A stretch of 64,000 bases of DNA. It comes from an uncultured Nitrososphaeraceae archaeon (GTDB lineage: Archaea; Thermoproteota; Nitrososphaeria; Nitrososphaerales; Nitrososphaeraceae). Location of the stretch: NCBI GenBank assembly GCA_963729045.1, contig CAVSMN010000020.1, forward strand, positions 96,001-160,000, read 5' to 3'. The translations under genes and the position numbers were made by a program. Of the stretch, positions 4,050 to 62,223 are shown piece after piece. Below the pieces are notes generated by a model. That model was given only the letters and a program-made list of their open reading frames with translations, did not search any database and was not told where the DNA came from. Numbering within the stretch: the stretch's first letter is position 1; each line of letters begins with the position of its first letter.

Positions 4050-5405
4050 TTGCTTATATGTCTTGGTTGTTATATACAATCTATTATTATGATGTCTTAT
4101 AAGTTAGATAAATATGATAAATTTCCGTTAAAAATTCTAATGGTTTCCACCGAATATCCACCCATTCCCGGAGGCGTTGGGAGATATGCAAAGAATCTCA
4201 CAGAGGGATTAAAAAGATCAGGTATGAAAGTTTCTGTTTTATGCAACGAGAAGGGAAAAGGAGATTATATGGGTATTGATCCTGAAAATAGCAATAATTC
4301 AAAAATAATACTAGATGTAATTGATGAGTATGTCCCTGATCTTGTGCACATCCAATTAGAACATGGACTTTATGGACTAAAAATGGACGCCATCAATCCA
4401 AGTAAATTAAGTACCAACATAGATGAATTTTATAAAGAATGTAAAATACCCATAATCACTACATTTCATTCTGCATATCCATTACGACAATGGATTGGGC
4501 TATCAAAACACCCTAATCTTTTAGATAAAAACATGATTACTTTTCCAATTAATTTGAGCAAGCAAATAATAGCCTATTGGAAACGCTTTATAAACTACCG
4601 ATCTTTTAATACAGCAAACAAGCAAAAAATGCAAATGAGTCAGGCCAGTATTGTTTTTTCAAATTATTTGGCCAAATTAATAGCCGAAAATGATGAAAAA
4701 TCATTGAAAAATTTTACTGTCATATATCATGGTGCAGAGTCAAATTTGAATATGCCTTTAAAGAAAAAGGAGGCAAGAGAAGCATACTCCTTACCACTAA
4801 ATCGTAAAATAGCTCTATTCTTTGGATTCATGACGCATACAAAAGGCTGGGACATATTAAATAATTTGGATATTCCAGATGATTGGGCGATGGTAATTAA
4901 TCAGTCGGAAAATTTATTCAATACGATAAAGCCGTCTTCAATTGATGGTAATGATAACCAGAAAAGAGTTCTTCACACAGAAAGGAAAGATACACGATAT
5001 AGTAAAATAATTAATTTGAATCGAGGATTCTTAACAGATAAAGAACTTTCAATTCTTTTTTATGCATGTGACATAATCATCCTTCCCTATACTGTAACTT
5101 CAGGTTCAGGGGTAATGTTTGATGCACTGGCTCACGGGTTACCATTCATAGCAACTGATTTAGGTTTCTTTAGAGAATTTGCAAATAAAGGACTTGGAAT
5201 AGTGGTAAAAAGAAGACCAAATGAATTTGCTAAAGCAATAAAGAAACTCGGAGCGAATTACTCTCATTATACTAAAAGAATTGAGGAATTCAATAAGGAA
5301 TTAACGTGGGATAATGTTGCGTTGCAGCATTATGCACTTTATACCACTGTTTTGGGTGAGAACAAGGGAATCAAAAACAACCTAGTCCCTTATGTCAGCC
5401 CATAA
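4050..5405 (+). CDS. Glycosyltransferase family 4 (GT-B)
   Basis: KILMVSTEYPPIPGGVGRY N-terminus; FFGFMTHTKG; ILPY…SGSGVMFDALAHGLPFIATD. True start probably ATG ~4089-4092. Confidence 0.9.
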   Translation: MLICLGCYIQSIIMMSYKLDKYDKFPLKILMVSTEYPPIPGGVGRYAKNLTEGLKRSGMKVSVLCNEKGKGDYMGIDPENSNNSKIILDVIDEYVPDLVHIQLEHGLYGLKMDAINPSKLSTNIDEFYKECKIPIITTFHSAYPLRQWIGLSKHPNLLDKNMITFPINLSKQIIAYWKRFINYRSFNTANKQKMQMSQASIVFSNYLAKLIAENDEKSLKNFTVIYHGAESNLNMPLKKKEAREAYSLPLNRKIALFFGFMTHTKGWDILNNLDIPDDWAMVINQSENLFNTIKPSSIDGNDNQKRVLHTERKDTRYSKIINLNRGFLTDKELSILFYACDIIILPYTVTSGSGVMFDALAHGLPFIATDLGFFREFANKGLGIVVKRRPNEFAKAIKKLGANYSHYTKRIEEFNKELTWDNVALQHYALYTTVLGENKGIKNNLVPYVSP

Positions 5406-5741
5406 TAGAAATTTAATAGTTTCATGATTTATTATGACCGACACTTAGGTTATATGCTCAATGGATTCATACATTAAAGAAGAGATTATTTTTTTAATCT
5501 CTGATAAGAACATGAAAAGACATGGTTCTGAATTTGTTTTCACTGCTTACTATAGTATTTAATAGTTAATGTAAAAGGTAATGATTTGAAGATTTTCTAA
5601 ATTACATTTTATGGAACAATGAAATAATATAATATATGATGATAGTCAGTGAAATTGTCGCTCCATTTTTATTAAATCTTACTATAATAAACAGTTTTCT
5701 TAATCCTACACTATTTCAATGAGTTAACGACCCATGGTAGA

Positions 5742-6725
5742 TTAACTATTTTGAAAAATATAATCTACAAGATCGCTTATCTTGGCAGTGGCAACGCAAC
5801 ACACCTTGTCCGCACCACCATAATAAACAAAAAGTTCTCCATTGATAATGCAAGCACCTGTAGGAAAGACCACATTGTTTACATCACCATATTTCTCATA
5901 TTGTGTAGTAGGCACTAGAATGGGTTCTTTGCTTCTACAAATTATTTTATATGGATCTTCTAAATCCAGAAGTGCAGCACCAGCACTATAGGTTCTGTCT
6001 GCGCTCACACCATGATATATCACTAACCACCCATATTTTGTTCTAATAGGCGGAGAACCAGCACCGATCTTTAATTCTTCCCATTTTTGTTCCGGCTTCA
6101 TGAGCAAAGTATGCGTTTCAAAACTTGTCAATGTAGTTCCCTCTCCAATCCATATACTGGGTTTATCAATTCCGTATGCGTCACCTACCCATGAACTTGG
6201 CCTATGCAAGCAGAAATACGCCATCTTTTCACTATTGATGGTATTTTTAGAGGGTAATTTGGTTGGAAAAAGAACCACATCTTTGTTATCCATCCCTTCA
6301 TTCGTAATAATGCCCAGTCTTTCAAATTTGGAATAATCTCTAGTAGTTGCTAATGCGGTTGATACCATTGGACCTTTTTTTGGACGATCAGGTAATACTA
6401 CATAAGTAATGTAAACTTGACTGTCAATTTCGGACAATCTGGGATCTTCGATACCGTATTTTTCGTAGTCCAATGTCGGATTAAACGCAATTCCATCACG
6501 CCTGCTAAAGAGGTAACCATCATCACTGGATGCATATCCTATTCTTGAAAGGTAGTGTTCATATTCTCCGATCGCACGATAAAGCATGTGAATTTTTTTT
6601 CCATCATTTAATATGGCACAGTTAAAAACAGCTTCTGATTCCCACCAGTTATTCTTATTGGGAATAAGTATAGGATTATTTGAATATCTCTTTAGGATTT
6701 CGGGGTTCAATTGGACGGAGTTCAA
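5742..6725 (-). CDS. GH130-family glycoside phosphorylase/hydrolase (beta-mannoside-active family)
   Basis: NPIL…WESEAVFNCA, GIEDPR, NKDVVLFP, LHRP, KIGAGSPPI, WLVIYHGV, YEKYGDVNNVVFPTG, YYGGAD motifs. Confidence 0.88.
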   Translation of the reverse strand: MNSVQLNPEILKRYSNNPILIPNKNNWWESEAVFNCAILNDGKKIHMLYRAIGEYEHYLSRIGYASSDDGYLFSRRDGIAFNPTLDYEKYGIEDPRLSEIDSQVYITYVVLPDRPKKGPMVSTALATTRDYSKFERLGIITNEGMDNKDVVLFPTKLPSKNTINSEKMAYFCLHRPSSWVGDAYGIDKPSIWIGEGTTLTSFETHTLLMKPEQKWEELKIGAGSPPIRTKYGWLVIYHGVSADRTYSAGAALLDLEDPYKIICRSKEPILVPTTQYEKYGDVNNVVFPTGACIINGELFVYYGGADKVCCVATAKISDLVDYIFQNS

Positions 6726-7214: not shown

Positions 7215-7788
7215 AACTTAAGATATACATGATACATATTAAGGATTATCAAAATAATACTAAATAGCATATATAATAAGATAAAAACCAGACATAAAGT
7301 AATTGCAATAGAACCCAACAAAGCTTTCTTTCATTATCTAACCATCATCTCATCCAACAATTCTCGAAGATTTGGTGATCGCTGCTAATGGTAATATATT
7401 ACAAGTAGAGGTTAATCAGAGCGAAAATCCTTTCTTTTTGACTTTTGGGTATATTTAGTTAAACTTTAGCCTTTATTTCGAATAAATATTATTAGAACAT
7501 ATTTTACCAATTCAAATTTTGATAGTCATTATTTTTATACAAGTGTATGAATCACAAGATCAAATAAAAAGTGATGCCATCAGGGTTGATGAGAGTTTCA
7601 AAACATGTTTAGAAACACCCACTAACGTATCTTTGCTATAAGCAAGGCTAGATCATATTGATATGATGACCAAAATACGAATAAACACCCCTAACATGAA
7701 GTACAATTCTATAAACTGGTAAAAACTTTATTTTTTGGAGATAAAACGATATAAAAATTATGATATTATGTGAGGTAGTGAAGGAGAT

Positions 7789-8148
7789 CTAGTTTGCACG
7801 TATCTCTGGAGTTTCATAAAATCTCCTGCTAAATTCCTTAGAGATTTCTTCTTCTTTTATAATCTCTCCTCTTCGTCCAGGAGTTCGCATCATTTGCTGT
7901 CTAACACTTCTTCTTTCGTCGTCTAACTCATCAAATCCTCTTTCTATATCATATATTTGCTGTTTCTTAGTTCTTAATTCTTGAGAATATCTTTGGCGAA
8001 AAGATGTTTCCACATTTTCATTTGATTGTTCTTCAGCAATGACAACAATACTTTCATTTTTTGTCTGATTGATCACAGTGCTTTTATGAAGAGAATCTAA
8101 TGACATGAAGGGAAGGTGATTATTATTATAACTTTTTTCTATTACCAT
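7789..8148 (-). CDS. Hypothetical protein with charged C-terminal domain
   Basis: 119-aa ORF; C-terminal RQRYSQELR…RTPGRRGEIIKEEEI region looks conserved and helical. No function assigned. Confidence 0.6.
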   Translation of the reverse strand: MVIEKSYNNNHLPFMSLDSLHKSTVINQTKNESIVVIAEEQSNENVETSFRQRYSQELRTKKQQIYDIERGFDELDDERRSVRQQMMRTPGRRGEIIKEEEISKEFSRRFYETPEIRAN

Positions 8149-8926
8149 ATTACTATATACATACCATGTCTCTTAAGTATATTATGATGGATATCGTTTT
8201 CAGTTCATGTTAATCATCATTTCAATATCTATTAAAAATGATTCCTTCACATGAACCATTAATTCAATAGCAAACAGCATGATCTGGAACTAGAATAACG
8301 AATAGAATAATTAGGTCATAATTGACCATTTTTGTGTTAATCTTTTCAAGGCAATATCTCAGTTTACCGCACCTGATAACATACATAGCACTATTAAGAG
8401 TGCATAAAAGAAATTCCATTTTTTATGGACATTACTCAATTGATGGAAAATGGATTAGGATTTGTTTGGGGAATGCTTTAGAAAAATACTATGATAAAAC
8501 TTCAGAGAGAGAAACAAACAGTATTGTAGCAGGTCATAGTTTCTTGCAATTTTAGAACAACTTATTTAAATCCAAATTACTCCATAGGATATTATAGAAA
8601 TAGAATACGGAAATAATATAGATATTTTATGTTATCGATGACCAGGTACATTGGATGAAATCCTGAATTTGAACTAACCCTACTAGTACAAGTAGAAGTA
8701 ATGAGGAGAAATGACAAATCTTGAACATGAAAATACTTGTATGTCATTTATGATCAAATTGTCCAAATACTCCTTTTACGACATTCTAATTGAATTGGAC
8801 ATTAATCATAGAAAAGAGAAGATGGAAAGTTTAACCTTATCCAAAAGAGTGCAGATCCACTAAAGAATATGTCTAAATACGCGTATTATTAATATACTTT
8901 GGAATCTATATTATCTATGATTACTA

Positions 8927-25179: not shown

Positions 25180-26174
25180 TTAGTCTTGACTCAAATAATA
25201 GATCTCATTCTTGGTCGAAACAGTTAATCCAGTATGTGGACCACCTCCTATTGCATATATCTTATCATCATATGAAGCGACACCTAATCCGTGTCGAGCA
25301 GTGGGCATAGGCAATTCTTCACTCCAAGTATCAGTAGCCGGATCATAACGTTCATTATTATTAAACGTTCCTTGATTTTGCTCACCTCCCAATACATAAA
25401 TTGATCCATTTACTGATGTGGCCGCAATACCACTCCTTTTTGACGGCATGGGTTCGAGATCAGTAGTCCATTGATCCAAAACAGGATCATATTTCTCGTT
25501 TACATCTACGTTTACTAAAGAACCAGTAAGTCTACCCCCCATCACATAAATATTTCCATCAACTACTGCAGAAGCAGCATTATGCCGAGCAGTTGGCATA
25601 GGGGCAAGTAAGGTCCATTGTTCAGTTAGTTGGTCGTACCCCTCAACATTACGAGAGAATGATCGTAACTATCCCCTCCAATTACATACAATATTCCATT
25701 AACGAAGTTTGCATTTGGCGAACCTCTGGTGTAGGCATAGGATTACCAAAAGTCCAATTGTTGGTAGCAGGATCATAAATTAACAGGTTGTTACTAGGGA
25801 TCCAATTCCCTGTATATCCCCCAACCAAATAAATCTTACCCCCATAGAGGGCTGCAGAAGCATGGTGAAGAGGTAAAGGTAACGACTTTATGTTTTGAAC
25901 CCAGGTATTATCAGTGGAATTGTACATTTCGACAATGTCTGTAATTTTACCGTCTAAAGTAAAACCACCTATCACATAAACTGCCTCTTCCAAATTAGCC
26001 GCTATTACCTCGGTTCTTGGATTTGGTAAAGCTGCACCCTCCATCCAAATAGATTCTACAGAGGGAGCCGGTGCTGCGAAAGAGGCATTGAATATACAAA
26101 ACCAAAAAAACTGCGACAAAAAAGATCGACAAGATATAAACAGAACGTAGAATAGGTGTAAGAAAAAGTTTCAT
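25180..26174 (-). CDS. Secreted Kelch-repeat protein; two frameshifts
   Basis: Repeated YVIGG…YDP…W…PMPTAR Kelch blades across ORFs 25682-26119 and 25180-25599; signal-peptide-like start MKLFLTPIL at 26174. Confidence 0.85.
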
Positions 26175-26785: not shown

Positions 26786-28004
26786 ATGAGGTTAGATTTT
26801 CCACCTAAATATACTGAAACTATAGGTGCTGTAAAGATTCACTCACTTCAAAAAATATATGAAATAGATTCCGGGTATAATTTTGGTACCACTTCGCAGG
26901 AACTTTAACAGGTCGACCATAGCATTTGACAGTAACACATTATCAAAGATATTTCAAGCCATGGCAGTAGTGATTCCAGTTAAGGATGAAAAATTGAGTC
27001 TTTTGGAAGGTGTTTTAAGCGGTATTCCTAACGAATGTCTAATAATCATAGTATCAAACAGTCAAAGACATCCCGTTGATAGATATGCTATGGAAGTAGA
27101 AATGGTTAAGCAGTATTCTCTGTTTTCAAATAAAAGGATTATCACAATACATCAAACGGATCCCAACCTTAGTAGAATTTTCCACAAGATTAATTACCCT
27201 TCAATTTTGGATCACAATAACCAAGTTCGTCAAGGCAAAGCAGAAGGAATGATAATTGGGATTTTGTTATCCAAATTGCTTAAGAAAGAGTATGTAGGGT
27301 TTGTAGACAGTGACAATTATTTTCCCGGAGCAGTAAATGAGTACATCAAGATTTTTGCATCGGGTTTTGCTATGTCGAATTCTCCTTTGTGTAATGTAAG
27401 AATATGCTGGCATTCTAAACCAAAAATAGCAAACAACAAAGTATATTTTCCGAAATGGGGAAGAATATCTGAACACAGTAACAAATACCTAAATGACTTG
27501 ATCTCATATATTACCGGATATGAGAGAGATATTATTACTACAGGAAATGCTGGAGAACACTCACTTTCTATGTCGCTTGCAGAAAACTTAGAATTCTCTA
27601 GTGGATATTCAGTAGAACCATATGAACTAATTAATATTTTAGAAAAATATGGAGGCATTATTTCCAATAAATCATTTGACATCGGACAGCATGGCGTAGA
27701 AATATTTCAGGTTGAAACAAGAAACCCCCACTTCCATGAAAATAAAGGAAATGAACATATTCAAGGAATGCTTCAAGAGTCCCTTAATGTAATTAATAAT
27801 AGTAAAATTTGCAATACTGAAATTACTACAGATATAAAAAATCATTTACTCATGTTACAGCAAAAAGATAGTCTTAGTAATATCAAATCAAATAATCAAA
27901 TTATCTTGATGGATCCGATTAAGACTATTGAGATAGATAAATTTCATGATCTTGTTGTAGATAGTCCGAGGTTATTACAACAATTTAACATTGATGAAAA
28001 ATAG
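26786..28004 (+). CDS. mpgS: Mannosyl-3-phosphoglycerate synthase (GT55); frameshift near 26905
   Basis: N-terminus MRLDFPPKYTETIGAVKIHSLQKIYEIDSG at 26786; LLEGVLSGIP, GKAEGM, GFVDSDNYFPG, WGRISE, GNAGEH, GYSVEP, ETRNPHFHE. Confidence 0.9.
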
Positions 28005-28203
28005 GACGGTCTAATTATATCAGGTAATTCAGTTCTAAACTTTAATAGGAAATAACCAATTCATGGTTTAGAATAACCATAAGATTCATTTCTCATTTTA
28101 GTTTTCTGGTATCGCAGTGAATTTGCTTGACTATTGACATTATTTATGTATTTATGGACAGGCACTAGTGATCACAATTCCCTCAATTGTACATGGCTAA
28201 GAA

Positions 28204-28789
28204 GTAAGGAACGGTTTTGGGCTTGCCATTGATCCAATATCAAACAAACTTTGGATACGGAAAATGGTACAGGTTATGGGATGAAATCAATTTGGTTGAG
28301 CCAGGGTTCAATAGCGGTTGGTTAAGATTTACAAGGCTGGTGGCCTGTTGAGAATGCACAACGCTACTCCCTGAGAGAGGTTATTTTGAAGACAAGATGG
28401 TAACAATACCGAATAACTTAAGAGACGTTTGCTAGATAAAGGAAAATACAGTAGTCAAGAATTTACTTGGAATATGTCTGTAGGAGTAACTGCTCTAGAA
28501 TTTCTTAAAAATGATACGTTAGGGAATCAATATCAAAATGACATGTTCGCTGCTGATTATAATAATGATTACTTGTATGATTTTGATCTAACTGAAGACA
28601 GAACACGCCTGGATCTAAATGGGAATCTAGCAGATAAAGTAGCTAACAATAACCAAGAACTTGATGATATCGTATTTGGACAAGGATTTGGTATTGCCAC
28701 TGACATTAAGGAAGGACTCAGACGGATATCTTTATGTTCTTTCTCATATACATGGCAATCTCTATAGAATAGTTCCTAATTCAGATTAA
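28204..28789 (+). pseudogene. 5'-truncated, multiply frameshifted GSDH-family dehydrogenase remnant
   Basis: Fragments VRNGFGLAIDP, DTENG, DEINLVEPGFNSGW, VGVTALEFL, FGQGFGIATDIK parallel the 23.4-24.8 kb protein. N-terminal half is absent. Confidence 0.75.
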
Positions 28790-29163
28790 GATCTAATCTT
28801 TTTTCTTGATTCATGAGGTTTTGAAATCGAATTAATACACTTTTTTTATTTATTCTTTAATAAATCATAAAAATCACCAATCAAAACAACAAATTAGCAA
28901 AATTAGTCAAGATTTCTCAATCATGAAAAGATAATCAATCACAAATAATATATCCAAAAAAAGATGATCAAAAAATAAAGATCATTTAATAATAATTAGG
29001 AATCCATTACTAAAACATATCATAGTAAAAGTGAAAATTACAGAATCAAATTTTAAATGGAAACCAAATTTTGAATCTAACAAACCTATCCTTATATTAG
29101 AAAACAATCGCATGTATTATATAGTATTTTAATAAACTAAGGGTGTGAGATGAGGGATTACCA

Positions 29164-30392
29164 ATGACAATGCTAAATGTAAGTGATACCATACCAAAAA
29201 CCACAGAATATAAAAAATTTGTATCCATCATTATACCTACTTTTAACGAATCTAGGAATATTAAGAATTACTTAATCAAATTCAATCAAATATACCTTCA
29301 GGAACGAATGTAGAAATCATAATAGTAGACGATAACTCTCCTGACGGGACTGGTCTAATAGTCGAAAAATATATTGAATCTAACATGGGCACTTTACCTA
29401 GAGACAAATCAGTACAAGACATCTCAATTAAGGTAGTTCATAGAAAAGAAAAGACGGGCTTGATCTCGGCCCTTGTGAACGGAATCAGTACAAGTGAGGG
29501 ACAAAATGTCCTAATCATGGACGCAGATTTTTCACATCCTCCAGAGGTAATAAATAGAATGATATCAGAGTTAAAGAAGGAACCTAATTGCATCATCATT
29601 GGTTCTAGATATATTACAGGTGGGGCTATCAAGGGGATGCCCTTTAAGAGATTCTTGCTTAGTGCTGGAGCAAATTTTATTGCTAGACATGGATTGTGTT
29701 TAAAAAACATTTATGATCCGATGTCAGGCTTTTTTGCCTTTCCAAAGCATACACTTCACGACATAGAATTTAATACTGACGGGTTTAAGATACTGTTAGA
29801 AATTTTAATAAAGAAAAAAAACACTATCAAGGTAAAAGAGATACCCTATACCTTTAAGGATCGAAAATACGGACAGAGTAAACTTAGCTTTCCAATAATT
29901 TTAGATTATATTAAGGCAGTTTGGAAACTCTATCGATATGGAAGGAAATCTAAGAAACAAAACACTCAATTAGAAAAGAGAAAATCGGTTCGATTTATTT
30001 CAAAGGCGGCCAGGTTCTATACGGTAGGAGTTAGCGGCTTTGTTTTGAATTATTTGGTATCAATTCTTTTATCAAATGGAATCTTGGGAAGCTTTGGATA
30101 TTTACAAGCCACTGCAGTAGGGATAGCAGTTTCAGTAACCACAAATTTCTTATTAAACAAATTCTGGACTTTTGAAGACAAAAATGTCAATTTGACCCGA
30201 TTTATTAGACAATACGGAATGTTCGTTGGATGTAGTTCATTAGGCATCCTAATACAGTTTTTGTCAATTTATATGCTTAGAGAATCAGGTGTTCCATATG
30301 ATGTTTCACTCTTAATAGGAGTCACAATAGCATCAGTTAGCAATTTCTTATTTAATAAAAAATGGACTTTCAAGGAAAATATATGGGAATAA
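29164..30392 (+). CDS. Polyprenol/dolichol-phosphate mannosyltransferase (GT2) with C-terminal GtrA domain; frameshift near 29275
   Basis: VSIIIPTFNE, EIIIVDDNSPDGT upstream of the track ORF; MDADFSHPP, GSRY, DPMSGFF; GtrA NFLLNKFWTF…NFLFNKKWTF. Confidence 0.9.
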
Positions 30393-41867: not shown

Positions 41868-42956
41868 TTGGACGATGTAGAAGATAGTAAAGAAAATAAA
41901 TCTACTGATGAACTCGCGGACCTCAAGGAAAATCTAATAAAAAGCGGCACTAATACACAGCAATCGCCCAATTTAGTCCAAGAAGGAATCATTGCAGGCA
42001 AAAAAATTGCAAAAACCTCAGTTATAACTTTACTGGCTATAGGTATTGTAGAAATAATCACAGGAATTCTCAGTGGCAGTGTAGTCGCTACCGCTGATGG
42101 TTTAGATTCAATATCAGATGCAGCCATTTCTTTTATAGTATTATTAGGATTAAGGATTGCACATAGACCGGCTGACAAGAAGTTTCATTTTGGGTATCAT
42201 AAAGTTGAAAGTTTTACAGCATTAATTGCTTCAATAGGAATGATAGTGATTGGTATAGTCATATTTTATAATTCCTATCAGGCATTAATTCATCCACATG
42301 AAATAAGGCATGCATATATTGTTATGGCAGTCCTAGCCGGAGCAAGTGCATTATCTCTTCATAGAGCATTTCAAATGCGGATTATAGCTAACAAGTATAA
42401 TTTGCTTTCACTAAAGACAGATGCGAGAAATTCTATAAAAGATGGATCAGCTTCAGTTATCGGTTTCTTTAGTATACTTGTTGCAACACAATTTGGATTT
42501 GAACAAATGGACGGAATAGGTGGAATGATAATAGCGTGTTATATCTTCTCAGTTTCATACTTATCTCTTAAAAAATCATCTTTGATACTCATAGACTCAT
42601 GGCAAAACCCCAAATTAACAGTAGTAATAAAAAACATAATTTCAGAACAATTTAGCGATGAAAAAATAGTTGTAAGAGACGTATTACTTCGCTCTTCGGG
42701 CATGATAGATCAAGCAGAAATACACATAGCAGTTGATGGAAAGGAATCATTAGAAGAAGTCGAAATGCTATCTTTAAAAATACAGTTGGTGATTAGTTCT
42801 CAATTTCCATCCATTGAAAGAGTTTTAGTAATCCCACATCCTTATTCCGCTTCAGAGACGCGAGTAACTTCAAGAATGGATCGGTTCAGGAATATGAAAT
42901 TAAAAAGGCCTTCATATATGAATAGAAATATCAAACAGGATGAAAACACCAAATAA
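41868..42956 (+). CDS. Cation diffusion facilitator (FieF/YiiP-like)
   Basis: ADGLDSISD, RPADKKFHFGYHKVES, DARNSIKD, C-terminal dimerisation domain. Confidence 0.9.
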   Translation: MDDVEDSKENKSTDELADLKENLIKSGTNTQQSPNLVQEGIIAGKKIAKTSVITLLAIGIVEIITGILSGSVVATADGLDSISDAAISFIVLLGLRIAHRPADKKFHFGYHKVESFTALIASIGMIVIGIVIFYNSYQALIHPHEIRHAYIVMAVLAGASALSLHRAFQMRIIANKYNLLSLKTDARNSIKDGSASVIGFFSILVATQFGFEQMDGIGGMIIACYIFSVSYLSLKKSSLILIDSWQNPKLTVVIKNIISEQFSDEKIVVRDVLLRSSGMIDQAEIHIAVDGKESLEEVEMLSLKIQLVISSQFPSIERVLVIPHPYSASETRVTSRMDRFRNMKLKRPSYMNRNIKQDENTK

Positions 42957-43122: not shown

Positions 43123-44262
43123 ATGAGTTTATATACTTTTATTAGTAATAAAGATCGGATGAATAGTTTCATTACTGTAAATAAATTTTTAGTGACTTCA
43201 GCCGTATTAGCAATATCATTTGTACTACTTTTAGGTCAAACTTCAATGACCATGAATGTATTTGCTACAACCAATACAGCTAACCAAGGTATAGGCCAAT
43301 CACAATCCTCAACTCAACTTGGTGTTTGTGTTTCAGGTGACGGCACCCTTTTTTCATGTAACAACTTGAGTGACCAAAATCAAGCAAATAGCGGAAATAA
43401 TGCAGCAGCACAAAGTGGTGGCAACGATGACGATGATGACGACGATGACGATGGCAACACAGCTAACCAAGGTATAGGTCAAGCACAATCTTCTAACCAA
43501 AATGCTCTATGTGTATCAGGTTCTGGAACTTTTGTTTCTTGTAACAATTTAAATGCACAAAATCAAGCAAATAGCGGAAACAATGCATTAGCACAACAAG
43601 GTGGTAGTGGTAGTGGTGGCAATTTAGCTAACCAAGCAATCGGTCAATCACAATCCTCTAACCAAGGTAGTGGTGTAGTATCTGGTGGCAACACTGCTGG
43701 TTCAGGAAACAACGCAAACACACAAAGTCAAACAAACACTGGAAACAACGCAGCAGCACAACAAGGTGGTAGTGGTAGTGGTGGCAATTCAGCCAATCAA
43801 GGTATAGGCCAATCACAATCTTCTAACCAAGGTAGTGGCGTAGTATCTGGTGGCAACACTGCTGGTTCAGGAAACAACGCAAACACACAAAGTCAAAATA
43901 ACACCGGTAGTAACGCAGCAGCACAACAAGGTGGTAGTGGTAGTGGTGGCAATTCAGCCAATCAAGGTATAGGCCAATCACAATCCTCTAACCAAGGTAG
44001 TGGTGTAGTATCTGGTGGCAACACTGCTGGTTCTGGAAACAACGCAAACACACAAAGTCAAACAAACACTGGAAACAACGCAGCAGCACAACAAGGTGGT
44101 AGTGGTAGTGGTGGCAATTCAGCCAATCAAGGTATAGGCCAATCACAATCCTCTAACCAAGGTAGTGGCGTAGTATCTGGTGGCAACACTGCTGGTTCAG
44201 GAAACAACGCAAACACACAAAGTCAAAATAACACCGGTAGTAACGCTGTCGGACAACAATAA
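43123..44262 (+). CDS. Secreted Gln/Asn/Gly/Ser-rich tandem-repeat protein (six repeats)
   Basis: Signal peptide …MNVFA; two Cys-containing repeats plus four near-identical 55-aa repeats. Start probably ATG 43159. Confidence 0.85.
   Translation: MSLYTFISNKDRMNSFITVNKFLVTSAVLAISFVLLLGQTSMTMNVFATTNTANQGIGQSQSSTQLGVCVSGDGTLFSCNNLSDQNQANSGNNAAAQSGGNDDDDDDDDDGNTANQGIGQAQSSNQNALCVSGSGTFVSCNNLNAQNQANSGNNALAQQGGSGSGGNLANQAIGQSQSSNQGSGVVSGGNTAGSGNNANTQSQTNTGNNAAAQQGGSGSGGNSANQGIGQSQSSNQGSGVVSGGNTAGSGNNANTQSQNNTGSNAAAQQGGSGSGGNSANQGIGQSQSSNQGSGVVSGGNTAGSGNNANTQSQTNTGNNAAAQQGGSGSGGNSANQGIGQSQSSNQGSGVVSGGNTAGSGNNANTQSQNNTGSNAVGQQ
43627..44259 (+). repeat. Four 165-bp coding tandem repeats in ABAB arrangement
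   Basis: gccaatcaaggtataggcc at 43792, 43957 and 44122 (165-bp period). Units 1 and 3 carry QTNTGNN/ggtgta; units 2 and 4 carry QNNTGSN/ggcgta. Confidence 0.9.
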
Positions 44263-44269
44263 ACATAAA

Positions 44270-44286
44270 TTTTTTTCTATTTTTTT
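44270..44286 (+). terminator. Oligo-T archaeal terminator
   Basis: T7-cta-T7 directly after the stop codon of the repeat-protein gene. Confidence 0.5.
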
Positions 44287-44598: not shown

Positions 44599-44787
44599 TT
44601 ATGTATTCTTACGTGATGCTTTTCCACCGGCCCTTGCTACTCGTGTTCTAGTTTCTTCGCTAGCTGCTTGCAGTCCTCTTTCATCATGCTGGGCTTTTCC
44701 ACCGGCCCTTGCTACTCGTGTTCTAGTTTCTTCGCTAGCTGAAGCTAAACCTCTATTATTACCGTTTTTGTTGTTATTTTGAGGCAT
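44599..44787 (-). CDS. KGG-repeat stress protein (Con-10/GsiB/YciG-like)
   Basis: Two 25-aa repeats RGLxxASEETRTRVARAGGKA; DNA duplicated at 75-nt period. Confidence 0.85.
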   Translation of the reverse strand: MPQNNNKNGNNRGLASASEETRTRVARAGGKAQHDERGLQAASEETRTRVARAGGKASRKNT

Positions 44788-54077: not shown

Positions 54078-55581
54078 TTATGAAGACTCATCAATAAATT
54101 CTTTTATTTTCAAATTAAGTTTGTCATTAGCAATCTTTAATCTATTAGAACGGTCCTCAAGAATTTCCTCATATTCATTCATTTTTGTAGTTATGTATGA
54201 AATCATCTCTTTTTGTTCATTTTTATTAGGAGAACCTTTGGTAGTGCGATATTCTATTGAATTTTCTGGAGTCATACTTTGGATTATACTTTGAATCTTT
54301 TCTAGAGTTAGATCAGGATTTGAATAGTCAATCAGTCCTAATGCCTTAGATATATCACTTGGTTTTAATAGATTCAGAGGGATATTTCCATTCTTTACCG
54401 CATAATCTACTAAAGTACCGATTAATTTGTGAGACTCCCTAAACGATATTCCCCCTTTTTTGATAAGTTGTTCTGCAATGTCTAGTGATATAGCGTAGCT
54501 TTTAGATGAATCTGCATACATTTTGTTTTTATTCGACACTCATTGTAGATATCACACCGGCCATAATAGATAGAGACCCTTCAAGTATTGAAGTAATTTT
54601 CCATAACAAAGGTTTTATCTCCTGTAAATCTCTGCTATATCCTGAAGGCAGTCCTTTCATAATTGTAGAAATTGCTACCAAAATCCCCTGTATAACGCCA
54701 GTCTTTCCACGAATAAGTTCCAGAGGATCAGGATTCTTTTTTTGTGGCATTACAGATGAGGATGAACTAAATCGATCATCCAAGAAAACAAAACCGAATT
54801 CAGATGTAGACCAAACAATAAGATCCTCTGCTATCTTACATAGGTTTAACATACAAGTAAGAGAGGCAGAAGCGAATTCTATCAACGAATCTCGTGAACT
54901 CGTCGCATCTATGCTATTATAGACAATATCTGAAAAACCTAACATGGAGGACACTCTTTCACGATCTATGTTCATACTGCTTCCCCCGATAGCACAAGCC
55001 CCCAGTGGAGAACAATTGATCCTTTTATATGATTCTGAATACCTTTCGAAGTCTCGGGTTAAAGAAAAGCAATATGATAGTAAATAATGAGAAAAAACAC
55101 CCAATTGAGCCTGTTGCATATGAGTGTACATAGGCATTATGGAATCAACATTACTGTTTGCCTGCAATAATAATGATTTTATTAACAATATTATATTAGC
55201 ACTAATTCGATTTAGATCATCCCGAAGTTTCATTCTAATGTCTAATATCACTTGGTCATTTCTCGATCTTGCGGTATGCATTTTCCCACCCGAATTGATA
55301 TCGGTAATCCTTATAATAGCAGATTCTATCAATTCATGGATGTCTTCAGAAGCGCTATCACCATATCTGTTTAATGAATCGGAATGGGTCAATAAGTGAT
55401 CCATACCTTTTAAAATAGTAACCAGTTCTTTTTTAGCCAGGATACCAACTTCATATAACATTATTACGTGAGCCTGACTCCCCAAGATATCGTAATAAAA
55501 TAAGTCAGCATCTTCGGCTATTGAGGACAAAAATGATAGAGCTTTATTATCCAAATTTCCACTGGGCCTAGACCTATACAT
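54078..55581 (-). CDS. argH: Argininosuccinate lyase; frameshift near 54534
   Basis: EDIHE, HTARSRNDQ, YTHMQQAQ, SPLGACA, SSSVMPQKKNPD, GYSRDLQE; C-terminal GISFRESH in the second ORF. Confidence 0.93.
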
Positions 55582-60805: not shown

Positions 60806-62223
60806 ATGAAATTTCTACTGCCGAGAGGGATGAGAGATCTAGAGCCAGACGAGTATAAGGACATCAATGTGATCAGAAATGCATTCATAGACTCTGCAAG
60901 AATTTTTAATTTTATGTTAATGGAACCATCTCCATTAGAATTATTATCTACCCTCGAGACAAAGTCAGGTCCTTCCATAACTAAGGAGATCTACAATTTC
61001 GTAGACAAAGGGAATAGAAATATTGCTCTTAGATTTGATTTAACCATAGGATTAACAAGATACTTTGTATCCCGAAGAGATCTGAAGATTCCCACAAAAA
61101 TGGCCTCATTTGGTGGAGTTTGGAGATATGATGAGCCACAAGCAGGAAGATACAGATTTTTCCATCAATGGGACATTGAAATATACGGGCCTTCATCAAT
61201 AGAATCGGATACTGAAATAATTGAATTTACATCAATTTTTCTACAAAAACTCGGATTGAGAAATATACTTATCGATATTAGCAGTAGAAATTTAATTGAA
61301 GAATATATCAAAAATATTCTCAAGGTATCAAATGATGAAGAAATATTTGAGATATTCAGGGCAATTGACAAAATACCAAAGAAGGGAAAAGCCAATGTGT
61401 TAAAAGAATATAGTGAAAGAATTGATAGTAAAGTCTTAGAAAAAGTGATTAATTTTGCAGAGAAAAAAGGTAGTTTCAAGGAATTAGATGATGCTATGAA
61501 TTTGCTCGAACTGAAGAACTGGGAAGACATAGGAAAAATCAACATGTCGTTATCAAATAAAGGAATAAACAACATTCGAATTAATTTGGGCATCGTAAGA
61601 GGTTTGGACTATTATTCAGGGTTAGTTTTTGAAGCAATAGACACAGGAAATAACCTAGGATCCCTTGTTGGAGGTGGTCGATACAACAAACTTACCGATG
61701 CTTTTGGAAGAAAAGAAGTTGGAGCCATCGGGGCAGCTGGTGGGGTTGAGCGTATTGTTTTGGCAATGAAACAACAGGGAATATTCAAGAAAGATAAAAC
61801 AGTGAGTTTGAAGATTTGAATTATATAGTATATGACTCTATCGAAATATTTGACTATGTAGAACAATTATCCTCGTATTTAAGGAGAAACAATTTTCCAG
61901 TTGACTATGACTTGTCAGGAAGATCATTTTCAAAACAAATTGCAGAAGCAGAAAATAAGAAGAGTAAAAAAATCATAATTGTAAGTAAAGAGGATTTAGA
62001 AAAAAATGGCAAACTAACATTAAGAGATGCATTTCATAAGACAGATAAGAAGATAAACATAACTAAGGATTTTGATGAATTAGTTCAAGAGTTAGTCGAC
62101 AATAAGATTGAGATAAATTTAGAGTTTGATAGATTTTACACTTTTCATTTTAATAAAACCACTTGGAGTTTTGGCATACACTTTTCTCAATACCAAATCT
62201 GGTGGATCATAGCTTATATATAA
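60806..62223 (+). CDS. hisS: Histidyl-tRNA synthetase; frameshift near 61797, 3' end uncertain
   Basis: PRGMRD, LRFDLT, WRYDEPQAGRYRFFHQWD, VRGLDYYSG, GGGRY, GVER; anticodon-binding domain in ORF 61816-62223. Confidence 0.92.

Follow-up and report, generated by a model that had tools for sequence, protein, structure and literature searches.

The locus examined here raises the question of what an archaeon would gain from an apparently exported protein that consists, beyond its N-terminal segment, of nothing but six Gln/Asn-rich tandem repeats. The gene lies on the forward strand, most likely at positions 43159 to 44262, of a 64,000-nucleotide stretch of DNA (hereafter, the window) from an uncultured Nitrososphaeraceae archaeon (GenBank assembly GCA_963729045.1, contig CAVSMN010000020.1, positions 96,001 to 160,000). 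The answer that we favour, with confidence that is evenly balanced, is that the protein would be exported through Sec, stack its repeats into a solenoid with a Gln/Asn-ladder core, polymerise, and contribute to the structure of the cell coat or of the matrix outside the cell. The features on which the argument draws, all on the forward strand, are the following.

43123 to 44262, forward strand: longest open reading frame (ORF), 379 aa, the version of the first-pass annotation (ORF listing)
43128 to 43135, forward strand: TATA-box-like TTTATATA, about 28 nt 5' of the ATG at 43159 (read from the sequence)
43159 to 44262, forward strand: most likely coding sequence, a 367-aa precursor starting at M13 (ATT in ortholog locus L009 and ortholog starts)
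43159 to 43266, forward strand: signal-peptide-like N-terminus (hydrophobicity scan)
43273 to 43416, forward strand: core of repeat 1 (R1), 48 aa, with a Cys pair, C-x9-C (repeat hidden Markov model, HMM)
43417 to 43455, forward strand: poly-Asp linker GGN-D9-G between R1 and R2 (sequence)
43456 to 43599, forward strand: core of repeat 2 (R2), with a Cys pair (repeat HMM)
43621 to 43764, forward strand: core of repeat 3 (R3), Cys-less, with V and G in place of both Cys (repeat HMM)
43786 to 43929, forward strand: core of repeat 4 (R4), Cys-less (repeat HMM)
43951 to 44094, forward strand: core of repeat 5 (R5), Cys-less, nucleotide identity to R3 0.944 (repeat HMM)
44116 to 44259, forward strand: core of repeat 6 (R6), Cys-less, nucleotide identity to R4 0.965, end of the protein (repeat HMM)
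44270 to 44286, forward strand: two T7 runs just 3' of the TAA stop, a putative oligo-T terminator (read from the sequence)

The six units span residues 51-111, 112-166, 167-221, 222-276, 277-331 and 332-379 of the 379-residue ORF, and an HMM built from them matches each one at an i-Evalue of 1e-23 to 1e-25, with no match outside them in the six-frame translation of the window. The repeat unit is 55 aa long, a 48-aa core plus a linker. R1 and R2 each contain C-x9-C (CVSG...SCNN) and are joined by the poly-Asp linker; the remaining four linkers are GGSGSGG. Counted over 329 aa, the mature part has the composition G70 N60 S55 Q47 A35 T19 V13 D11 L7 I6 C4 F2, with G+N+S+Q amounting to 70% and K, R, H, E, P, W, Y and M all at zero; R3-R6 are thus free of charged, aromatic and Pro residues. 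These properties agree with the first-pass annotation, which had listed a signal peptide, six repeats, the Cys pairs of R1 and R2, both types of linker, the lack of such residues in R3-R6 and the lack of a membrane anchor. R3/R5 and R4/R6 are near-identical and not identical pairs, with 2 aa differences in each. This near-identity suggests that the last 330 nt arose recently, by duplication of two units. For R3-R6, Tandem Repeats Finder gives a period of 165 nt, 4.1 copies, 92% matches and a score of 1175.

The predicted signal peptide comprises the n-region MNSFITVNK, the h-region FLVTSAVLAISFVLLLG and the c-region QTSMTMNVFA. Hydrophobicity, scanned in a 12-residue window, peaks at 2.77 at residues 27-38 and shows no other peak, and the C-terminus coincides with the end of the last repeat, with no C-terminal tail and no membrane anchor visible in the scan. 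We infer that the precursor would be exported via Sec and cleaved after VFA. A class III (pilin-type) signal peptide was rejected for want of a G/A ahead of the hydrophobic segment. Heavy N-glycosylation of the protein was likewise rejected, with only 3 N-x-S/T sequons in 331 residues.

The evidence that carries the proposed fold comes from conservation across the family, analyzed in 249 unique 48-residue repeats from 264 proteins. The odd positions N1 A3 Q5 I7 Q9 Q11 S13 Q15 and N31 N33 Q35 Q37 N39 G41 N43 Q47 are near-invariant. Entropy at most of the odd positions in 1-15 and 31-47 is 0-0.3 bits, compared to 1.7-3.2 bits at the even positions. Such alternating conservation points to two beta strands, each with one constrained face that is polar (Gln/Asn) and not hydrophobic. 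The alternating Q/N spacing noticed earlier in the window protein is accordingly seen as a strict two-residue periodicity throughout the 249 repeats. Furthermore, the ratio of nonsynonymous to synonymous substitution rates (dN/dS) among orthologs is 0.07-0.22 over the first 196-213 codons, indicating strong constraint as opposed to a drifting low-complexity spacer.

Between the two strands lies a turn of the form [C/V]19-V-S-G-x-x-T-x-x-S-[C/G]29-N-N. Positions 19 and 29 are both Cys in 144 of the 249 repeats, neither is Cys in 101 (V and G instead), and only 4 are mixed. Among 432 unique repeats, Cys19-Cys29 is the top covarying pair, with a corrected mutual information (MIp) of 0.758 against 0.41 for the next one; apart from it, only same-strand pairs covary, those next in rank being i/i+4 positions, a pattern that does not discriminate between hairpin and arch. 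This covariation is good evidence for a predicted disulfide across the turn, and the locking of the first two turns of the window protein by disulfides is a well-supported prediction. With the register 19+29=48, the odd positions that are conserved in one strand also pair with those of the other. The idea that the disulfide repeats act as a nucleator or cap fares less well. Cys-bearing repeats are the commoner state in the family and occur in every repeat of many paralogs; what is left of the idea is that the first three repeats are repeatedly ordered 'Cys, Cys, no-Cys' across paralog classes, so that the N-terminal repeats may have a positional role. The linkers are Gly-rich and charge-bearing, being poly-Asp, Lys-rich or neutral depending on the paralog, and poly-Asp at the R1-R2 position is found in orthologs as well.

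We propose the following scheme. In each repeat, strand A (N-x-A-x-Q-x-I-x-Q-x-Q-x-S-x-Q) would be followed by the 15-residue turn, [C/V]-V-S-G-x-x-T-x-x-S-[C/G]-N-N, with a disulfide staple in R1 and R2, by strand B (N-x-N-x-Q-x-Q-x-N-x-G-N-N-A-x-x-Q), and by the Gly-rich linker. In-register stacking of the repeats would produce a broad beta-solenoid of two sheets with a Gln/Asn-ladder core as in curli CsgA and FapC, and the linkers would align along one edge and bear its sole charge (poly-Asp in the window protein). Because the repeats run from the predicted cleavage site to the last residue, without a cap, both ends would be open, making stacking end to end or with paralogs possible. Molecules and paralogs could thus build up ribbons or sheets, the product being a structural component of the Nitrosocosmicus extracellular matrix or cell coat. 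The folding of the repeats as stacked arches with a Gln/Asn-ladder core is moderately supported. Solenoid stacking, polymerisation, disulfide formation and the matrix or envelope role we infer, and an amyloid or matrix role of the family as a whole is plausible.

Structure prediction provided partial support for this scheme. For the whole mature protein (61 sequences), AlphaFold2 produced a model with a mean predicted local distance difference test score (pLDDT) of 65.9 and a predicted template modelling score (pTM) of 0.57, in which twelve long strands, two per repeat, are accompanied in some turns by an extra short strand. For R3-R6 (39 register-aligned four-repeat rows), pLDDT was 79.9 and pTM 0.69, confidence was highest around the turn, and short beta bridges formed inside the nine-residue Cys/V...G loop. 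Because such loop bridges are hardly possible within one hairpin, the model would favour parallel stacking of neighbouring repeats.

When the models were compared to the PDB with Foldseek, the highest-ranking match of the four-repeat model was FapC (9u4u_A; E 3.6e-3, probability 0.09, template modelling (TM) score 0.10/0.13, 14% identity), and that of the whole-protein model was Pontibacter CsgA (8c50_A; E 0.083, TM 0.07). The E. coli CsgA fibril (8enq_A) came at rank 8 for the four-repeat model (E 2.3, TM 0.09/0.10). The bulk of the lists consisted of parallel beta-helices or ice-binding solenoids, the ice-binding matches being non-significant (3ult_A, E 1.8; 5uyt_A, E 4.1-8.1; 6eio, E 9.6). 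With no significant match, the resemblance in class is suggestive and a match in fold is not established. Of the beta-solenoid that the first-pass annotation expected from a monomer model, the two long strands per repeat are predicted, with moderate pLDDT and non-significant fold matches.

The resemblance to known functional amyloids can be specified further. CsgA and FapC are both described, in the available part of PMC12822426, as built of imperfect repeats whose beta-arches contain networks of hydrogen bonds formed by conserved Asn/Gln. The exported imperfect repeats with periodic Asn/Gln that mark functional amyloids are found in the window protein too, export being judged from its N-terminal hydrophobic region. 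Like CsgA, it is predicted to be exported, lacks an anchor, and consists of imperfect tandem strand-turn-strand repeats with near-invariant Gln/Asn (plus Ser, Gly and Ala) at alternating positions; the short motif G-N-x-A is common to both. Unlike CsgA, it has a repeat of 55 aa rather than 19-23 aa, a long turn stapled by a predicted disulfide or by V/G, and Gly-rich, charged linkers; its archaeal host lacks an outer membrane, its family comprises at least 7-10 paralogs per genome, and it has no csg accessory neighbours, the Pfam scan of the 59 window ORFs having yielded no gene of the csgB, csgC or csgE-G type. FapC (PDB 9u4u) shares with it the long imperfect repeats with linkers and the conserved Asn/Gln networks (PMC12822426, available part). 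In contrast, the FapC layers are Greek-key shaped, whereas the pattern of the Nitrosocosmicus repeat suggests a simple two-strand arch, and no family of the fapA-F operon was found near the gene among the same 59 ORFs.

Comparison of sequences places the protein apart from curli. The Pfam curlin family matched neither the protein (E up to 10) nor six of its paralogs (E up to 1). We retrieved E. coli csgA and aligned its repeats R1-R5 for a profile comparison: hhalign gave a probability of 0.35% over 2 aligned columns for the repeat profile against E. coli CsgA, and of 0.83% over 5 aligned columns (GNNAA / GNSAL) against the CsgA repeat alignment. The CsgA consensus S-x5-Q-x-G-x-G-N-x-A-x3-Q of 19-23 residues does not occur, the 55-aa unit having a different consensus. 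Judged by its sequence, the repeat protein is not a curlin homologue, and its likeness to curli and Fap is one of architecture only.

Two other groups of proteins invite comparison. Ice-binding and parallel beta-helix proteins (3ult, 5uyt, SufBD, LpxD) also stack short repeats into flat faces, but they have hydrophobic cores and rungs of 15-25 residues, and all matched at E >=0.77 and TM <=0.18. Methanosaeta MspA is an archaeal extracellular, beta-rich cell-covering protein. The same can be said, from description only, of the methanogen sheath proteins of Methanospirillum, as portrayed in the available part of PMC10593813. Neither the sheath protein nor MspA matched in the Pfam and PDB sequence searches of the repeat protein. 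To our knowledge, neither is a Gln/Asn tandem-repeat protein.

Several observations weigh against the proposed solenoid and its polymerisation. No listed Foldseek match against the PDB reached E 1e-3 or better, and TM did not exceed 0.18. The five R3-R6 models spread widely (pLDDT 79.9, 70.8, 59.3, 43.1 and 29.8), with only two of them at 70 or above, and AlphaFold2 is known to draw solenoids too readily for tandem repeats. No kinship in sequence to curlin or to any solved protein was detected with Pfam, PDB or hhalign searches, and the Pfam scan of the window ORFs disclosed no chaperone, nucleator, secretion or assembly partner near the gene. A composition rich in G, S, N and Q is also typical of disordered proteins, and a solenoid of six rungs might remain a stable monomer. 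The earlier proposal of an extracellular fibre subunit is supported in part by the export-like N-terminus, the lack of an anchor, the repeats-only architecture, the Q/N periodicity and the predicted strands, and is held back by the non-significant folds, the lack of curlin kinship and the missing accessory genes.

The alternative that survives best, which we consider unlikely although deserving of attention, is a monomeric, non-fibrillar beta-solenoid that binds ice, mineral, a glycocalyx glycan or cations (NH4+, Cu2+, Ca2+) through its faces or its charged edge. Ice-binding and adhesin-type beta-helices are indeed among the Foldseek matches (3ult_A, 5uyt_A, 6eio), the even positions of strand B, which would point outward, read A/T/S/T/T/N in R3-R6 and would form a flat Thr/Ser-rich array, and the poly-Asp or Lys-rich linkers differ by paralog. 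In addition, a cation-efflux gene adjoins the repeat gene, and five non-orthologous family loci have a homologue of it no more than 6 kb away. However, those fold matches have E >=1.8 and TM <=0.1, and neither end of the protein has a capping element. Moreover, the outward faces are variable in the family and the Q/N face is conserved, suggesting that selection maintains the core of the fold rather than a ligand site.

A second alternative, which we rate as very unlikely, is a disordered, low-complexity secreted protein, possibly glycosylated, that forms part of a hydrogel of the glycocalyx or extracellular polymeric substances, the strands being an artefact of repeat modelling. The share of G, N, S and Q, the whole-protein pLDDT and the fact that 3 of the 5 four-repeat models fall below 60 would fit this account, and the available part of PMC11559005 proposes that the glycocalyx of Nitrosocosmicus consists of glycoproteins or glycolipids. 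Conversely, two-residue near-invariance, covariation of the Cys pair and the low dN/dS are not expected of a disordered spacer, and the sequons are few. The last alternative, a polyprotein precursor cut at the Gly-rich linkers into disulfide-looped signal or antimicrobial peptides of ~48 residues, is hardly credible: the signal peptide, the near-identical tandem units with short linkers and a sub-threshold match of paralog P0038 to Pfam 'Sublancin' (E 0.001; 19.6 bits, the cut-off being 26.9) speak for it, but the linkers vary in length and composition without a conserved processing site, 4 of the 6 units in the window protein are Cys-less, no protease, modification or export genes were found near the gene in the Pfam scan of the window, and the conserved pattern is that of beta strands.

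The Gln/Asn-ladder repeat that we favour as a structural element belongs to a family without a name. The 379-aa protein matched no Pfam family at E up to 10 and, among NCBIfam models, only NF040661 at a chance level (0.057), so that no known S-layer or anchor family was matched in either collection beyond this one. PDB sequence searches with the protein and the repeat profile returned only low-complexity chance matches to TAF9 and a T-cell receptor, and a search of the ESM Atlas returned only Nitrososphaerota clusters without names. By comparison, homologues were numerous: among 5.8 billion proteins searched by word index, 139 matched at E 1e-3 or better, and HMMER against 1.84 billion cluster representatives gave 155 matches at E<=1e-3, 69 at 1e-10 and 16 at 1e-30, many of them fragments. 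All descriptively named matches are called 'hypothetical protein', apart from three in the second protein search that bear apparently mistaken Joint Genome Institute (JGI) names. No prior description of the family was found in the literature on Nitrosocosmicus, ammonia-oxidizing archaea and archaeal functional amyloids, including the available part of PMC13245735. By the measure of these searches, the family is unannotated and undescribed.

The distribution of the family is narrow. We scanned one genome per prokaryotic species and obtained 134 stretches, of which the best 80 were used and 77 loci kept; counts per genome are thus lower bounds. All 77 loci are from Nitrosocosmicus or Nitrososphaeraceae save five with other labels. 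Two of these (L028, Gemmatimonadales, and L070, Thermoleophilaceae) show a step in guanine-plus-cytosine (GC) content from 0.33 to 0.70 just 3' of the repeat gene, one labelled Actinomycetes (L010) has a GC of 0.34, and two labelled Nitrosopumilus (L060 and L071) have 0.32 and 0.34. A bacterial origin of some homologues was accordingly rejected, L028 and L070 being chimeric contigs with a GC step and L010 having the low GC given above. Both L028:7000-8000 and L070:7000-8000 lie in long contigs that are probably chimeric assemblies, joined at or near the repetitive gene. Within this sampling, the family is restricted to the genus Nitrosocosmicus. The archaeal origin given in the first-pass annotation is borne out by the nearest relatives, both of the protein and of the genes around it, which are all from Candidatus Nitrosocosmicus or Nitrososphaeraceae, and by the archaeal housekeeping genes of the window (proteasome subunits, Alba, archease, an aIF2-type factor and an XPB helicase). 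The search for paralogues that it had suggested revealed a multi-copy family, with at least 8 loci in N. agrestis SS, at least 7 in strain FF01 and at least 10 in one metagenome-assembled genome.

The members of the family are similar in layout. A signal-peptide-like N-terminus was found in 79 of the 90 family ORFs, the other 11 being contig-end fragments or the downstream halves of split genes, and in 73 of the 90 no more than 2 residues separate the C-terminus from the last repeat. Members have as few as 1 and as many as 10 repeats; the syntenic orthologs of the window gene have 3 to 7. A conserved 203-aa paralog with three repeats also occurs in N. franklandianus, N. arcticus and strain T; VFJ14673.1 / WP_134484813.1 is an N. 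franklandianus paralog. No longer, fused relatives were found, which is weak evidence.

Some members are unusual. At L063:10540-11388, on the reverse strand, a protein of 282 aa has a signal peptide followed by half a repeat with the CVSG...SCNN turn, a G-x-y stretch that resembles collagen (matching Pfam Collagen at E 9e-16) and a further domain at the C-terminus, connecting the repeat with another fibre-forming module. In P0035, P0043 and L042:2246-3454, which are ~400 aa long, three repeats are preceded by ~230 residues that form an unrelated domain and match no Pfam family significantly. Family genes are split into 2-3 overlapping ORFs at L009:5893-6997 and also at L016, L030, L031 and L037; at L009 the frame is shifted by one extra nucleotide, absent from the window sequence, that separates repeats 4 and 5. 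These splits could be errors of long-read assembly or real on/off variation.

The host lends the question its weight. Nitrosocosmicus is common in fertilised soils, wastewater and skin, tolerates high ammonia, and grows as aggregates and biofilms. In the available part of PMC11559005, all Nitrosocosmicus are stated to be without S-layer and anchor genes, and cryo-tomography is reported to show a thick wall of ~18 nm and hair-like filaments of ~30 nm whose components are unknown. The accessible portion of PMC12448741 adds that the genus is without the adhesion proteins of other ammonia-oxidising archaea, aggregates first and makes strong biofilms, by a mechanism given as 'unclear how'. Being restricted to the genus, predicted to be exported, multi-copy, constrained and made of curli-like Q/N-ladder repeats, the family is a testable candidate for the missing coat material.

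A more far-reaching possibility, which we regard as quite unlikely, is that the family provides the main protein of the envelope that lacks an S-layer (the ~18 nm wall, the ~30 nm filaments or both), in the form of a cross-beta coat of at least 7-10 co-stacked paralogs. Alternating poly-Asp and Lys-rich edge linkers could then zip the sheets to one another through their opposite charges and retain ammonium or other cations. If this were the case, an amyloid would have taken the place of the S-layer in Nitrosocosmicus, and the family would also be the aggregation factor that has been missing in this genus. The polymerising Q/N-ladder solenoid, if correct, would represent a second, independent invention of repeat-encoded functional amyloid, the first in Nitrososphaerota, which needs no outer-membrane secretion machinery and has a 55-residue disulfide-stapled rung far wider than that of CsgA.

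With regard to the gene itself, translation probably starts at the ATG at 43159 (M13) and not at 43123: in ortholog locus L009 an ATT occupies the position of the first ATG of the window gene, ortholog N-termini read MNSFITVNK or MNNIITVNK, and TTTATATA lies ~28 nt upstream. The 379-aa ORF of the first-pass annotation is thus present as described, with a start that is likely too far upstream. From the general spacing of archaeal promoters, TTTATATA may be the promoter, a position that would imply a leaderless or near-leaderless mRNA. The T7 runs after the stop are likely an archaeal oligo-T terminator. Having its own TATA-like box and T-run terminator, the gene looks like a separate transcription unit. 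That the ORF is not a gene is excluded by conserved synteny and by the ortholog dN/dS.

The window has a GC content of 29-38%. The gene order around the repeat gene (flavin adenine dinucleotide (FAD) oxidoreductase, tRNA-Pro, cation-efflux transporter, repeat gene, 62-aa conserved protein, zf-UBP protein) recurs in eight loci of other Nitrosocosmicus genomes (L001, L008, L009, L017, L018, L025, L031 and L040). Around the 77 related loci, no consistently conserved accessory genes were found. The transporter directly upstream of the repeat gene (41868-42956, forward strand) is a cation diffusion facilitator (CDF). The five non-orthologous loci with a CDF homologue are L014, L022, L032, L035 and L036, and cation-efflux genes recur near two paralog classes. 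Genes for nucleotide cyclases, some with a receiver domain, and sensor histidine kinases lie within 6 kb of two different paralog classes (L035:1370-4438, L038:1661-3595 and 7531-8556, L012:7701-8708), the cyclase cluster occurring in 17 of the 77 loci. The latter proximity may reflect regulatory linkage or chance, and both it and that of the cation-efflux genes are too weak to build on. On the other side, at 44599-44787 on the reverse strand, lies the gene for the 62-aa protein, which has an internal duplication (ASEETRTRVARAGGKA twice) and no Pfam match at E<=1e-5, is 100% identical in two other genomes, and adjoins the repeat gene in seven loci.

Elsewhere in the window, three genes appear to be split: histidyl-tRNA synthetase, into a core and an anticodon-binding domain (60806-62223, forward strand), argininosuccinate lyase, into a core and a C-terminal domain (54078-55581, reverse strand), and a Kelch-repeat gene, into two pieces (25180-26119, reverse strand). 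Frameshifts, errors in the sequencing or real splits may account for this. Finally, the regions 4050-6725 and 26883-30392 encode glycosyltransferases, a GH130 mannoside phosphorylase, mannosyl-3-phosphoglycerate synthase and a GtrA-type glycosyltransferase, genes that may be relevant to the synthesis of osmolytes or of a glycocalyx.

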